Shown here: in pieces, positions 8,881 through 41,177 of the stretch
Layout: each line of letters begins with the position of its first letter
How positions within the stretch are numbered: position 1 is the first letter of the stretch
Source: a virus
Lineage: Duplodnaviria; Heunggongvirae; Uroviricota; Caudoviricetes
Virus record (IMG/VR): IMGVR_UViG_2534681997_000004
Span: 1-41,177 of that record
Strand: one strand, 5' to 3'
DNA: 41,177 nt
Translations under genes and position numbers: made by a program
Notes under the pieces: model-generated
Told to the model about the DNA's origin: nothing
Seen by the model: only the letters and a program-made list of their open reading frames with translations
Databases searched by the model: none

Positions 8881-9792
8881 ATGTCAAATACCGCTGAAAT
8901 ATTCAAATTCCCCACACAGCAGGGGAAACAGGAGAGCAGCATGGCTGAACTGGAGAAAGGCTATTTGCGCCTGGCCAACCAGATTCAGGATGCCCTGTGT
9001 ATCGTCGAACTATCCGGGCGCGAGTTCCGGGTGCTGAATGCTATCGTTCGTCTGACCTATGGCTGGTCTAAGAGTTCTGACCGCATCGCCAATAGCCTCA
9101 TTGCAGATAAAACGACGCTGAAGGTGAAACACGTCTCTGAAGCCGTGTTGAGCCTTGCCTATCGGAACATCATCATCCTGCGCCGCATTGGGCAAACCAG
9201 ATACATAGGGATTAATACCAGCCTGGATAAATGGGCGTATACCAAGCCAAATTGCATGAAGTGTCCAGCGGTGTTTCCTGCTGCTGAAGTTGTCACATGG
9301 GTTATTACCATCCCTGAATTCAGGGATAGCAATTTTACCCCTTCAATCATCCCTGAAAACGGGGATAACCATCCCCAAAAACAGGGAGAGGTATCCCTGA
9401 AAACAGGGAACACCAAAGACATTCTTCCAAATACAAATATAAATACAGATCTAACCCCCTCTAATCCCCCAAAGGGGAAGGGTAAGTTTGACCCGCTGAC
9501 GATTCCCGTTCCTGAGTGGCTTGATTCTGTGTCCTGGAGTGAGTGGGTGGCCTACCGCCAACAGTCTGGCAAAGCCATCAAGACCGAAATGACGGTCACC
9601 AAAGCATTCAAGTTGCTCAAGGCTTGCCTGGACGCTGGGCATGACCCCGTTGATGTGATCAACACCAGTATCGCCAACGGGTACCAGGGACTGTTTAAAC
9701 CGAAGTTCGCTCTCAACGCTCGCAAAACGGGCAGGGATGTGAACCGCATTTCTGAGCCAGACAAAACAATCCCACCCGGATTCAGGGGGTAA
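8881..9792 (+). CDS. Replication initiation protein, lambda O N-terminal domain-like
   Basis: N-terminus (LRLANQIQDALCIVELSGREFRVLNAIVRLTYGWSKSSDRIANSLIADKTTLKVKHVSEA) resembles the phage O N-terminal DNA-binding domain; ATG 8881 with GGAG RBS (alternative ATG at 8848). Confidence 0.6.
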   Translation: MSNTAEIFKFPTQQGKQESSMAELEKGYLRLANQIQDALCIVELSGREFRVLNAIVRLTYGWSKSSDRIANSLIADKTTLKVKHVSEAVLSLAYRNIIILRRIGQTRYIGINTSLDKWAYTKPNCMKCPAVFPAAEVVTWVITIPEFRDSNFTPSIIPENGDNHPQKQGEVSLKTGNTKDILPNTNINTDLTPSNPPKGKGKFDPLTIPVPEWLDSVSWSEWVAYRQQSGKAIKTEMTVTKAFKLLKACLDAGHDPVDVINTSIANGYQGLFKPKFALNARKTGRDVNRISEPDKTIPPGFRG

Positions 9793-9794
9793 GC

Positions 9795-10133
9795 ATGCCA
9801 AGACCAAATACACCAGAAGAGCAGGCGGCACTTATCCGGGTGATCATCGAAGAGGTGAAAATCCGTGGACGCTTAACCGTTAGCGAGGCATCACAGATGT
9901 TGTCGCTGCATCGTCAGACTGCTGAGAAGTATTTCCGCGTAGCAGCCGAACGCGGCGAACTCATTCGTTACGGTCGTCTAGGTTTGTTCAGGGACCCAAA
10001 GGCTGTAATTGATTTCGATCTCCAACGATTCTCATACGGTTCGAGTAAGCCTCTGATTGAGTTACCAGCAGATTTTCGGGGAAGTGCGGTTATGCGTCGG
10101 GTTATAGATATCGTGGGGAGGATGCCAGCATGA
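9795..10133 (+). CDS. Hypothetical HTH-containing protein
   Basis: 112-aa ORF with AGGGGG RBS; HTH-like LTVSEASQMLSLHRQTAEKY. Confidence 0.4.
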   Translation: MPRPNTPEEQAALIRVIIEEVKIRGRLTVSEASQMLSLHRQTAEKYFRVAAERGELIRYGRLGLFRDPKAVIDFDLQRFSYGSSKPLIELPADFRGSAVMRRVIDIVGRMPA

Positions 10134-10324
10134 CAACCGAAAAACTGGCGTTGAATTATGACCCAGCCGATCCCGACAAGATGCGATTACCGGCTGGCAT
10201 AACATGTGGTAATTGCCACCATATCCATCGTTGTAAAGCAATTTTTGGACACACGGAGTCGAACACATATTGCGATTGGTCACCGTCGCGATTTACTGCT
10301 GGCATTGGCGTGAAGGGGGATTGA
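10130..10324 (+). CDS. Hypothetical small Cys-rich protein
   Basis: 64 aa, ATGA overlap with upstream gene; CGNCHH...C...C pattern. Confidence 0.4.
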   Translation: MTTEKLALNYDPADPDKMRLPAGITCGNCHHIHRCKAIFGHTESNTYCDWSPSRFTAGIGVKGD

Positions 10325-10325
10325 G

Positions 10326-10532
10326 ATGATTGCTGCAAACTACATAGTCAATCTCTACTGCGACTGCGATGAGTGCACCGGTAAGCAATGGGGAAGCCCA
10401 GATTTTGCCGAGTACATTGGAAATTCATGGTCTGGCTGCGCTAAAGAGGCGCGGCCACATGGCTGGCGTATCAGCAAGGATAGAACGCGAGCGTTCGCGC
10501 CAGGTCACAAGATTTCGAGGACTAACCCATGA
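10326..10532 (+). CDS. Hypothetical small Cys-rich protein
   Basis: 68 aa starting 2 nt after the upstream stop; YCDCDEC motif. Confidence 0.35.
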   Translation: MIAANYIVNLYCDCDECTGKQWGSPDFAEYIGNSWSGCAKEARPHGWRISKDRTRAFAPGHKISRTNP

Positions 10533-10900
10533 CAACTATTACCAAAAAGCAACGCGCAGAGCTACGCATGAAGTTTGGCGGTCGCTGTGCTTATTGTGGA
10601 TGCGAACTACCAGAGAAAGGCTGGCATGCTGACCATGTAAAACCGGTCATTCGTTTTGATGGAAATATGCTTCACCAGGAACGTGACGATATATCAAACA
10701 TGGTTCCAGCATGCCACCCATGCAATCTGCACAAGCATTGCAGTAGCCTGGAAGATTACCGGCGAATTATCGGTGATGGTCGTCGTGAATTCCTTGTGTC
10801 CGGGAAAGGCAAAGCGCTGGTTCGTATGGGATTGGTTGAAATGAAATCTGACCCAGTGGTGTTCTGGTTCGAAAAATATCAAGAAGGAGCGTCAGCATGA
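10529..10900 (+). CDS. HNH endonuclease
   Basis: CAYCG...HADHVKP...N...PACHPCNLHK matches the HNH Cys/His/Asn signature; overlapping start/stop with neighbours. Confidence 0.7.
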   Translation: MTTITKKQRAELRMKFGGRCAYCGCELPEKGWHADHVKPVIRFDGNMLHQERDDISNMVPACHPCNLHKHCSSLEDYRRIIGDGRREFLVSGKGKALVRMGLVEMKSDPVVFWFEKYQEGASA

Positions 10901-11376
10901 CAACTAACAACCACCCGGCGCACGGTCCTGTATCACTCGATCGCCTGCACCAGATACGTGAAATACTCAGCAAAGCAGCAGCACAAAGCGACGGCGGTAA
11001 TGTCGGCTATGCGATGGCTGATGCTGTGAAGGTGATCAATGGAGTTCTGGAGTCGATGGCCCGTGAGCAAGTACGCCGTGAGCATGCTACATGGTCACAG
11101 GCTACTTTCGGCGATGTCGGTCCAGTTGGTCCTCTGAAGCACCTTTCTAAAGAAGCGCTCGAGGCTGCTGCTGAACCTGGCGACCTTAGCGAATGGGCTG
11201 ACATGCAATTCCTGTTATGGGATACGCAGCGTCGTGCCGGTATCAGTGATGAACAGATTACCCAAGCGATGGTAGAGAAGTTGGCGATTAACAAACAGCG
11301 CAAATGGCCTGAGCCGAAAGACGGTGAGCCATGTGTACATGACAGAATGAATCATGAGCGTATTGATTTTAGCTGA
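10897..11376 (+). CDS. Hypothetical protein, possibly nucleotide pyrophosphohydrolase-like (MazG/DUF550-like)
   Basis: 159 aa, translationally coupled to the HNH gene; family assignment from memory only. Confidence 0.35.
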   Translation: MTTNNHPAHGPVSLDRLHQIREILSKAAAQSDGGNVGYAMADAVKVINGVLESMAREQVRREHATWSQATFGDVGPVGPLKHLSKEALEAAAEPGDLSEWADMQFLLWDTQRRAGISDEQITQAMVEKLAINKQRKWPEPKDGEPCVHDRMNHERIDFS

Positions 11377-11504
11377 CTCACCGTAGCAACAATGAATAAT
11401 GTTTCGAGTGTATTTGATTATGCATTGTGAGATGGACATTACTGAGAGTGTAAATCTTAGTTTATGATAATGGACAGCAATGAAATTATACCCGGAGAGC
11501 GATA

Positions 11505-11972
11505 ATGGATACTAAGAATGAAGTTGTGCAACATTCATCACCCCAGCAGGCAGTGAGAGTATTTGCCGAGGCCCTTGAACAAGCCGTTAGGGAGAACACT
11601 ATAGAAGATTCGAACTCTCGGTCGCCTGGAAAAACTGTGCTTGATTCAAATTCAGAAATAAAATCTTCAACAATTGTCGGTGCTGGTGGATTGATCGGAA
11701 CTGCTGGCGTTGCAGCCACTACAGCTTCGGCCGTTACTGGTGGGTCAGCTGCTACTATAATGTCTGCAACAGCTGGAACAGTTGGAGCCAGTGTTGCATC
11801 TTTAGCAGGCGCAGCAGGAACGGCAGGGGCTGCGTCGATCTCATCCGGAATGGCAGCCGTTGGTTCGGTTGTTGGAGGAGGAATGGCCGCCGGGGCAATA
11901 ATCACAGCGGTGGCACCTGTCGCAGCAGTCGCAAGTGTTGCTTACTTGGCTTTTAAGCTTTTTGAAGATTAA
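11505..11972 (+). CDS. Gly/Ala-rich hydrophobic (glycine-zipper-like) membrane protein
   Basis: GGAGAG RBS 6 nt before ATG; C-terminal about 100 aa is almost entirely G/A/S/T/V with GxxxG/AxxxA spacing. Confidence 0.55.
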   Translation: MDTKNEVVQHSSPQQAVRVFAEALEQAVRENTIEDSNSRSPGKTVLDSNSEIKSSTIVGAGGLIGTAGVAATTASAVTGGSAATIMSATAGTVGASVASLAGAAGTAGAASISSGMAAVGSVVGGGMAAGAIITAVAPVAAVASVAYLAFKLFED

Positions 11973-12175
11973 CTAACCTTTCATAAAGGCTGTTTAAGCA
12001 GGCTAATTTTCATATCTTAGTAAAGTTTCTGCTGGTTCATAATTAGCAGATACAAAACAGAATCCCGCGATTTCACGGCGGAGCCAGCGATGTTTGCTGA
12101 AGCACTGGTGCGTGCAAATTTGCCAGAGCTTTGTCAGCAGAAACAAATAGCGGCTTAATAAAACATTGCTAATTC

Positions 12176-12203
12176 AACCCGCTACGGCGGGTTTTCTTTT
12201 TTT
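12176..12203 (+). terminator. Intrinsic terminator
   Basis: CCCGC-tacg-GCGGG stem-loop followed by TTTTCTTTTTTT. Confidence 0.6.
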
Positions 12204-12265: not shown

Positions 12266-12285
12266 TACTGTATAAAAACACAGTA
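12266..12285 (+). promoter_or_regulatory. LexA (SOS) box
   Basis: TACTGTATAAAAACACAGTA = CTGT-N8-ACAG palindrome, 18 nt upstream of the dinI-like start. Confidence 0.7.
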
Positions 12286-12303: not shown

Positions 12304-12537
12304 ATGAAAGTTGAATTAACCATTGATCGCATGAAAGAACTTCCTAAAGGCGCGGTACCAGCACTGGAGAAAGAATTGCTTAAGTGCCTGAATGATCACT
12401 ATGACAATTGCAGGCTCACAATCCGCCGTGCCGGGTCCGATGGGTTAAGTGTTTTCGGTGGAGACAAGGACGATAAAAAGAAAATCGAATCCATCCTCCA
12501 GGAAACCTGGGAAAGCGCTGACGACTGGTTTTATTAG
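12304..12537 (+). CDS. dinI: DinI-family DNA-damage-inducible protein
   Basis: GGAGG RBS; C-terminus ...KKKIESILQETWESADDWFY matches the DinI signature. Confidence 0.8.
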   Translation: MKVELTIDRMKELPKGAVPALEKELLKCLNDHYDNCRLTIRRAGSDGLSVFGGDKDDKKKIESILQETWESADDWFY

Positions 12538-40576: not shown

Positions 40577-40597
40577 AAATCTGGTGATGCTTCGCCG

Positions 40598-40623
40598 TTT
40601 CTCCTGTTTTCATAACAGGAGAA
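40598..40623. promoter_or_regulatory. Palindrome overlapping the invertase ribosome-binding site
   Basis: TTCTCCTGTT-ttcat-AACAGGAGAA, perfect 10-bp arms; right arm contains the AGGAGA RBS 7 nt before the invertase ATG. Confidence 0.4.
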
Positions 40624-40628
40624 ATCCC

Positions 40629-41177
40629 ATGATTTACGGTTATGCCCGAGTATCAACAAACCACCAGGACACTGAATTGCAACTAACGGCGCTCAAGTCA
40701 GCGGGTTGTGAGAAAATTTTTGAAGAGCATGCCAGCGGGAGGAAATCGAATCGGCCGGTTCTAAAACGGCTGATCGCCACTATGCAGCCGGGGGATGAAC
40801 TGGTGGTCTGGAAGCTGGACAGGATAGGCCGCAACGTTCTGCATGCGCTGTTGATGTTCCAGCAGTTACAGGAAAAGGGTATCAACTTCCGCAGTATTAC
40901 CGATGGCGTGGATCTCAAAACAGCCAGCGGCCGCTATAACTTTCGTAACATCCTTTCCGCAGCACAATATGAATCTGATCTTAATAGCGAACGTACCTTA
41001 GCAGGGCTGGCCGTAGCCAGGGCAAAAGGGCGAGTTGGTGGTCGCAGGCCTAAGTTCACGGATGAGCAATGGCGGGAAATGGGGGAGCGGATGGCAACCG
41101 GTGAATCACGACAAAGCGTATCAAAAACGTATGGAGTAGGGCTCTCAACTCTGTATAAAAAGTTTCCAGCTAGCTGA
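40629..41177 (+). CDS. Serine recombinase, DNA invertase (Hin/Gin/Pin family)
   Basis: MIYGYARVSTNHQD catalytic N-terminus, VVWKLDRIGRN, and C-terminal HTH ending ...STLYKKFPAS; stop coincides with the window end. Confidence 0.85.
   Translation: MIYGYARVSTNHQDTELQLTALKSAGCEKIFEEHASGRKSNRPVLKRLIATMQPGDELVVWKLDRIGRNVLHALLMFQQLQEKGINFRSITDGVDLKTASGRYNFRNILSAAQYESDLNSERTLAGLAVARAKGRVGGRRPKFTDEQWREMGERMATGESRQSVSKTYGVGLSTLYKKFPAS

Follow-up and report, generated by a model that had tools for sequence, protein, structure and literature searches.

A small Gly/Ala-rich predicted membrane protein carried as cargo by a temperate phage, with a possible role in phage exclusion or defence

What is a lone gene for a protein built largely of glycine, alanine and other small residues doing in the early region of a temperate phage whose close relatives lack it? 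The question is raised by a 41,177-nucleotide stretch of caudoviricete DNA (IMG/VR record IMGVR_UViG_2534681997_000004, positions 1 to 41,177; the whole stretch is called the window below), in which an open reading frame (ORF) at 11505..11972 encodes 155 residues. An initial annotation, made from the letters of the sequence, had described a Gly/Ala-rich membrane protein borne as a self-contained accessory gene, or "moron", and had proposed a toxin, an immunity protein or an exclusion factor. By our comparisons, the protein belongs to an uncatalogued family, and its gene lies in a foreign cassette at a position where a sister prophage carries an anti-phage defence system. We tentatively read the product as a solitary phage-exclusion or defence factor of the inner membrane, carried as hotspot cargo; that this is a real, membrane-type cargo gene we hold with much higher confidence than any statement about its function.

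A conserved gene and its family

Purifying selection marks the ORF at 11505..11972 as a true gene and no chance ORF, and its earlier description as a well-initiated frame of 155 residues with a GGAGAG ribosome-binding site (11494-11499) is accurate. On the evidence of sequence comparison, the encoded protein belongs to an uncatalogued family of small Gly/Ala-rich proteins. Twenty-five relatives were recovered from 5.8 billion proteins. When 185,579 species were scanned with one genome for each, 31 loci turned up, distributed among gamma-, beta- and epsilonproteobacteria, Desulfobacterales and one cyanobacterium. Some 30 full-length homologues share 57-75% amino-acid identity across 105 residues. 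Pairwise codon analysis of the homologues gave a median nonsynonymous divergence (dN) of 0.24 and a median synonymous divergence (dS) of 1.64, the latter saturated, for a ratio of about 0.14, while G+C content at third codon positions (GC3) ranges among them from 0.05 to 0.90, following the host genome. The low ratio, the saturated dS and the wide span of GC3 together point to long residence under strong purifying selection.

Members of the family are mostly 104-111 residues long, with a core of about 105, and the window protein carries the core motifs GGSAATIMSATAGT and SGMAxxGSxVGGGMAAGxxxTAAAPxA...YGLFKLFED. Invariant residues include G91, G124, G126, M127, G130, P138 and Y147. The window copy deviates in having Leu at the near-invariant position G148 and one Thr-to-Val replacement in AGTTGA. 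At most of 27 loci an ATG with its Shine-Dalgarno sequence is kept 2-7 codons ahead of the conserved Lys; the window copy has no such canonical short start and would begin at an ATG 50 codons earlier or perhaps at GTG 11637, which lies six codons ahead of the first aligned residue, Glu51, and eight ahead of the conserved Lys53, with a weak GGA as the only signal upstream. A search with the N-terminal 53 residues found no homologues, and the DNA of this part is absent from JGI metagenome contigs; hydrophilic N-terminal extensions of 17-66 residues arose independently at three other loci. The exact 155-residue protein is absent from a collection of 15 billion proteins, and an identical protein is encoded in four IMG/VR viral contigs.

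Pfam, NCBIfam, PHROGs and PADLOC do not hold this family: searches with the window protein plus 26 members returned nothing meaningful. For the window protein Pfam gave no family at E <= 10, and for the 26 members no glycine-zipper family or DUF1269 at E <= 1. A sequence-profile search of the PDB had no match, and Foldseek comparison of the better AlphaFold model with PDB and BFVD had no significant one, a result of little weight because the model is of low confidence. A PHROG tail-fibre match at E = 0.1 is compositional, and no virion structural protein, the identity that the initial annotation had set against its own proposal, emerges by sequence or by fold. Searches of phage and plasmid collections by tblastn were also negative, weakly so because the low-complexity filter of BLAST probably masks the core; searches at the DNA level are firmer.

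A profile search of 1.84 billion representative proteins returned only 186 clusters at E <= 0.001. A recognisable module, GLSAAGITSGLAAxGxxVGGGMAAG....AAAPxA.....YGxYK, makes up the C-terminal ~65 residues; its window-type motif is SGMAAxGSxVGGGMAAG..AAAPxA..YGLxK. The module occurs most commonly as standalone proteins of ~80 residues, all labelled hypothetical and without a Pfam domain. Larger proteins also end in it: LRAT (NlpC/P60-type) proteins carry one or two C-terminal copies, XRE-HTH proteins have it at their C-terminus, and elsewhere it follows an ADP-ribosylglycohydrolase domain. Bacterial LRAT modules share GLSAAGITSGLAAxGxxVGGGMAAG..AAP..YGxYK with the window protein, which in contrast has no enzyme domain, only an orphan head of 50 residues. 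Seven distant relatives match the PADLOC model for BnzA of the Bunzi defence system at positions 286-369 of 544 (best E = 9e-9). BnzA, a TerB protein, is depicted with two predicted transmembrane helices; the likeness consists of those seven relatives over 84 positions, which may or may not coincide with the BnzA transmembrane helices, and the window protein differs from BnzA in having neither a TerB domain, by Pfam search, nor a BnzB partner.

The C-terminal two thirds had been described as almost purely Gly, Ala, Ser, Thr and Val, and rightly so: these five make up 80% of residues 56-155 (A30, G18, V12, T10, S10), and between K53 and K151 there is a 97-residue stretch without any charge. The repeated small-xxx-small spacing that had also been noticed is indeed present, in 35 instances, and does not exceed what composition yields (shuffle mean 33.7, p = 0.38; zipper-type motifs, p = 0.21). 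AlphaFold models are all-helical, with helices at 13-35 (pLDDT, the predicted local distance difference test score, ~77), 56-76, 82-103, 106-122 and 128-154, and hydropathy peaks at residues ~116-150. A membrane location is plausible given the 97 uncharged residues, the occurrence of the C-terminal motif in larger proteins and the relatives that match part of the BnzA model; the membrane protein of the initial annotation stands as a prediction, made on sequence grounds from crude hydropathy and low-confidence helical models.

An architectural parallel in description is the GlyZip of calcyanins and DUF1269, a helical hairpin of two zipper halves split by a small residue plus Pro. Its equivalent in the window protein, likened by description, would be ...GGGMAAGAIITAAAP-VAA..., a small-residue zipper split by Pro; the window protein differs in motif details and has no profile match, lipobox or signal peptide.

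A variable slot between DUF550 and dinI

The window represents a temperate phage of E. coli type, with an early region like those of mEp237 and HK225 and a late region shared at 99.7% identity with prophages of E. coli; we assign it to a lineage of E. coli prophages with a lambdoid early region and a contractile tail. The rightward early region runs from a replication gene through an HNH gene, a DUF550 gene, the 155-residue gene, dinI, ninB and rusA to Q, and the gene in question lies ~3 kb upstream of the annotated Q.

Comparison with a sister E. coli prophage, AREA_C483 (NZ_CP123310.1), defines the insertion to the base. Window positions 10896-11330 match its DUF550 gene at 93.6% identity, and from 12096 onward the window is 92.7% identical to its methyltransferase remnant, terminator and dinI. 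Between these edges the window has 765 bp with one gene, and AREA_C483 has 2.5 kb with a 106-residue ORF followed by RmrT and RmrA (locus L053, 2108-4418; PADLOC E values 2e-26 and 2e-106, respectively), which constitute the RosmerTA defence system. In strain WEM25 the slot is empty; in KMi029 it holds a gene for a 55-residue secreted peptide, and in mEp237 gp47. The layout of DUF550, cargo, methyltransferase remnant with terminator, and dinI marks out a cargo hotspot of this E. coli prophage lineage. The window gene thus shares with RosmerTA a slot mapped base by base, has foreign composition and is followed by the terminator; it differs in being one small membrane protein without similarity to RmrT or RmrA, for which a defence phenotype is predicted by location.

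That the gene is cargo of the moron type, as had been proposed, is supported by its absence at the same position in close relatives, by a composition unlike that of its neighbours and by the variability of the slot. Searches at the DNA level found the gene in none of 50,697 deposited phage records and none of 5,426 complete E. coli genomes, and 11377-12095 has no E. coli match even with sensitive blastn. At 0.33, its GC3 falls below that of all 12 neighbouring genes compared (0.42-0.69). All four IMG/VR copies agree at every position of 11230-12195, while the flanks of one (L047) have single-nucleotide polymorphisms (SNPs). In one of these contigs the replication module is a different one and the DUF550 gene has ~18 SNPs, with none in 11230-12195. 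A tract with no SNPs between diverging flanks suggests a recently spread cassette. Elements of this kind are familiar: prophage accessory genes that encode small membrane proteins and occupy variable slots.

The claim of a self-contained unit needs to be trimmed. A terminator does follow the gene, and it belongs to the slot: it is kept in mEp237 and in E. coli relatives without the 155-residue gene, so that the unit is not wholly self-contained, and the promoter-like site ahead of the gene is of a kind found at chance level. Likewise, of the ~200 bp of non-coding DNA said to follow the gene, the last ~67 bp (12092-12158) are the remnant of a methyltransferase gene, while the rest (11973..12091) is untranslated. 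The cargo of mEp237 and of E. coli KMi029 is surrounded by two copies of the methyltransferase 3' end and terminator (L001, 2888-2954 and 3479 onward; L002, 3659-3684), and these duplicated boundary sequences look like recurrent recombination joints for cargo exchange.

A small RNA had been suspected in 11973-12175; the stretch has no Rfam family, and part of it is the gene remnant. On the plus strand, 11973-12203 folds better than shuffled sequences (z = -3.2). A hairpin in the 3' untranslated region (UTR) at ~12028-12048 opens with UUUCUGCUGG (~12028-12037), complementary to CAGCAGAAA at ~12135-12143; the minimum-free-energy fold pairs UUUCUGCUGG locally, not with CAGCAGAAA. Minus-strand promoter-like sites were sought and none was found, the only minus-strand feature being a weak 5-bp terminator-like hairpin, and the non-coding DNA flanking the gene is not conserved among homologues.

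Exclusion or defence, and competing explanations

Of the three roles proposed at the outset, genomic context favours exclusion or defence, and the immunity and bacteriocin side is unsupported. As an exclusion or defence factor, the protein would form helical hairpins in the inner membrane with its uncharged core, leaving the head and the KLFED tail in the cytoplasm. Contacts between the helices, in packing or in oligomers, would run through conserved small residues (G/A/S at i, i+3/4 and i+7), the GSxVGGGMAAG turn and the AAAP segment. Acting alone at the membrane, the protein would either block entry of a superinfecting phage genome or permeabilise the membrane, so that the infection is aborted. 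Transcription would come from pR in lytic growth and possibly from a weak promoter of its own in lysogens, in which case the terminator of the slot would stop the transcript short of dinI, the nin genes and Q. HK97 gp15, P22 SieA and T4 Imm are small inner-membrane superinfection-exclusion proteins with ordinary hydrophobic helices. The window protein can be likened to them by description, as a solitary small predicted membrane protein encoded by a prophage accessory gene; it has instead a 97-residue core rich in Gly, Ala, Ser, Thr and Val.

The neighbourhoods of relatives are suggestive of mobile or conflict-related settings, so far as gene content can indicate. One relative is on a 25-kb Rep3/ParA plasmid beside a HigBA-like pair, and another is near a RelE gene, a HepT/MNT pair and an insertion sequence. 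A Vibrio relative (V. splendidus-annotated P0007; L004, 1-9154) directly follows the candidate system PDC-M18A/B in a small integrative mobilisable element, with serine recombinase, Mob_Pre and Phage_GPA, inserted in comM (a truncated ChlI/Mg-chelatase gene); at a second marine locus (L006, 7038-7922) the family gene is again beside a truncated comM. Two Sulfurovum relatives adjoin ankyrin/HisKin-conflict genes, the ankyrin neighbours being limited to these two loci. Others are near type I and type II restriction-modification genes and MzaA, the E. albertii relative follows a type-III-restriction-like helicase, and the Xenorhabdus relative follows a PAAR gene and an effector-immunity pair of a type VI secretion system (T6SS). 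Of the single-module relatives, one is found between gpA and portal in a P2-like prophage of Aliivibrio, and another immediately precedes HamA and a helicase; further ones adjoin ParE pairs or lie close to a Card1 gene. The gpA-portal site of P2-like phages is the old/tin defence hotspot (PMC9122126), here occupied by relatives of the window protein. These hotspot links are suggestive. In a separate observation, two single-module relatives of ~80 residues (L051, 5371-7113; L056, 6365-8986) each precede a large TPR/Sel1-repeat protein, which may be a subfamily-specific partner.

Conserved partners were sought by all-against-all blastp of ORFs of at least 50 residues within 4 kb at 27 loci, and no conserved neighbour gene was found across them, which means that no immunity gene, exporter or C39 peptidase travels with the gene. 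A Pfam survey of 119 neighbours likewise showed no recurrent exporter or peptidase family among the families listed, the 25 commonest of 103, and small upstream ORFs, compared by eye, are unrelated.

Several points weigh against exclusion or defence. The functional call is drawn from genomic association only, and several relatives have neighbourhoods that hold no defence gene. The window protein itself does not match the BnzA model at E <= 0.01. Promoter-like sites with 9/12 matches, the candidate for expression in lysogens, are no more numerous in the region than in shuffled sequences. Membrane insertion is predicted crudely: the N-terminal half of the core is weakly hydrophobic, and the AlphaFold models have a mean pLDDT of 59-64, which is low. 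Finally, Leu at G148 and the missing canonical start could signal altered or decaying function.

Among the alternatives, the one that survives best, and still an unlikely one in our estimation, is a benign accessory membrane protein, serving in anti-defence, as an anchor or adaptor, or in stress tolerance, whose hotspot location is a by-product of cargo turnover. The attachment of the related module to enzymes and regulators would suit such a protein, as would the non-defence cargo that hotspots also carry (the secreted peptide of KMi029, gp47 of mEp237) and the position of the gene in an early lytic operon. A core identity of 57-75% across phyla, however, suggests a specific activity or partner, and most homologues reside in bacterial islands by defence or toxin-antitoxin genes, not in phage early regions.

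A stand-alone membrane toxin, whether of a type-I-like addiction system or a depolariser acting in stress or lysis, silenced at the level of RNA or expression and without a protein partner, we consider rather improbable. Relatives do occur on a plasmid, beside toxin-antitoxin pairs and at the edges of integrative elements; no protein partner was found, and the 3' UTR folds better than chance. One report (PMC10240207) describes membrane permeabilisation by glycine-zipper segments of a T6SS effector, which would lend such a toxin a means of action. Against this, proteins of 105-155 residues are far longer than typical type I toxins (under 60 residues), and RNA-level silencing finds little to attach to, with no minus-strand promoter-like site, a weak minus-strand hairpin only, no Rfam match and no conservation of flanking non-coding DNA among homologues.

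The same deviations counted above against exclusion or defence could instead mark a decaying hitch-hiker whose function has been lost in this phage: the canonical start is gone, the N-terminal extension is an orphan, and G148 has become Leu. We give this low probability, since the ORF is intact and well preceded by a strong Shine-Dalgarno signal, four independent viral contigs encode the identical protein, the tract without SNPs over the cassette suggests recent spread, and N-terminal extensions arose independently in other members.

A lysis-timing accessory of holin or antiholin type, made as two isoforms from ATG 11505 and GTG 11637, seems very unlikely. It draws on the two possible in-frame starts and on one homologue, in a P2-like IMG/VR contig, that lies ~2.6 kb from a gene read by eye as portal and adjoins a cassette also read by eye as lysis genes, where it comes directly after a short ORF with one hydrophobic stretch, a possible holin, and ORFs of 130 and 115 residues. 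The window gene is instead in the early region, well upstream of Q, most homologues are outside phages, the C-terminal tail, which is very short, lacks strong charge, and the best match of any family member to a holin family, at E = 0.28, is not significant.

Least credible of all is a secreted bacteriocin- or microcin-like pore former, or its immunity protein: the initial annotation had seen such a resemblance, and the window protein does share with pore-forming bacteriocins, class II microcins and the glycine-zipper segments of the T6SS effector Tde1 (PMC10240207) a Gly/Ala-rich, potentially membrane-active composition, with the Xenorhabdus PAAR/T6SS setting as a single supporting case, but the profile search proposed for these families found no match in Pfam or NCBIfam, no canonical double-glycine leader or signal peptide is visible by eye at the N-terminus, no exporter, C39 peptidase or immunity gene recurs across the 27 loci, and there is no delivery domain.

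Exclusion or defence, which we continue to favour tentatively, could be extended beyond the window. On a bolder view that we regard as doubtful, solitary glycine-zipper hairpin membrane proteins of 80-110 residues would make up an undescribed, widespread superfamily of minimal single-gene anti-phage factors, working by exclusion or by abortive infection, and would be the free form of the membrane module found in larger conflict proteins such as BnzA and bacterial LRAT proteins. If the window protein does exclude phages, it would rank among the smallest single-gene defence factors, and a function would be given to a conserved family outside curated databases; if it has no such activity, it is an ordinary hypothetical membrane-protein moron. 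The slot from DUF550 to dinI, with RosmerTA in the sister prophage, could be mined for further systems.

Feature coordinates and neighbouring genes

Coordinates of the gene, its signals and the boundaries of its slot are collected in Table 1.

Table 1. Features of the 155-residue gene and its surroundings, in window coordinates.
Feature	Coordinates	Strand	Basis or remark
Left flank, DUF550 / EaA-type gene; last ~46 bp in cassette	10897..11376	+	93.6% identity to AREA_C483 DUF550 up to 11330
Foreign 765-bp cassette, variable slot content	11331..12095		Homology to AREA_C483 ends at 11330, resumes at 12096
Candidate promoter-like hexamers, CTGAGA-18-GATAAT	11442..11471	+	9/12 match; intergenic GC upstream 0.36
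Shine-Dalgarno GGAGAG, spaced 5 nt from ATG	11494..11499	+	Sequence reading
Coding sequence, 155 residues, small Gly/Ala-rich predicted membrane protein	11505..11972	+	ORF; dN/dS ~0.14
Orphan hydrophilic N-terminal extension, residues 1-50, predicted helix 13-35	11505..11654	+	No homologue found
Possible in-frame alternative start GTG, putative 111-residue product	11637..11639	+	Start-site comparison
Conserved family core, residues 51-155	11655..11969	+	57-75% identity, ~30 homologues
Predicted C-terminal hairpin module, residues 106-155, most hydrophobic part ~116-150	11820..11969	+	Motif GSxVGGGMAAG..AAAP..YGLxK; predicted helices 106-122, 128-154
Cassette-specific 3' untranslated stretch, GC 0.40	11973..12091	+	No relative match
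DNA methyltransferase 3' remnant, right-hand slot boundary	12092..12158	+	Partial DNA (cytosine) methyltransferase annotation in E. coli prophages; 82% identity to mEp237 gene end
Intrinsic terminator, ancestral to slot	12176..12203	+	7-bp stem, 5 G-C pairs, 4-nt loop, T-tail
Right flank, dinI homologue	12304..12537	+	LexA-box-like site 12268-12283

An antisense ORF of 139 residues, rich in Ala, Pro, Thr and Asp, mirrors the gene on the minus strand (11486..11905). We rejected it as a true gene: its codons reflect those of the sense strand (Ala read as Ala, Gly as Pro), it misses the conserved C-terminal 22 codons, P138 and Y147 included, and in-frame fusions to LRAT and HTH occur in the plus frame only. 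Similar antisense ORFs are listed at the three homologous loci checked (L019, L023 and L049). The antisense ORF is a codon-composition artefact of GCN and GGN codons, with wobble positions that coincide with those of the sense frame.

A CTGT-N8-ACAG (LexA-box-like) sequence occurs once in the window, 21 nt before the start of dinI, which suggests that dinI forms its own SOS-regulated unit just past the terminator. On the other side of the slot, the HNH endonuclease gene at 10529-10900 is 92% identical to a gene of Stx2a-converting and ArgO145 phages and belongs to a replication block (8912-10896) that mEp237 lacks. At the end of the window (40584-41177) is a gene for a Pin-like DNA invertase, 99% identical to that of HK225, which suggests an invertible tail-fibre segment alongside.

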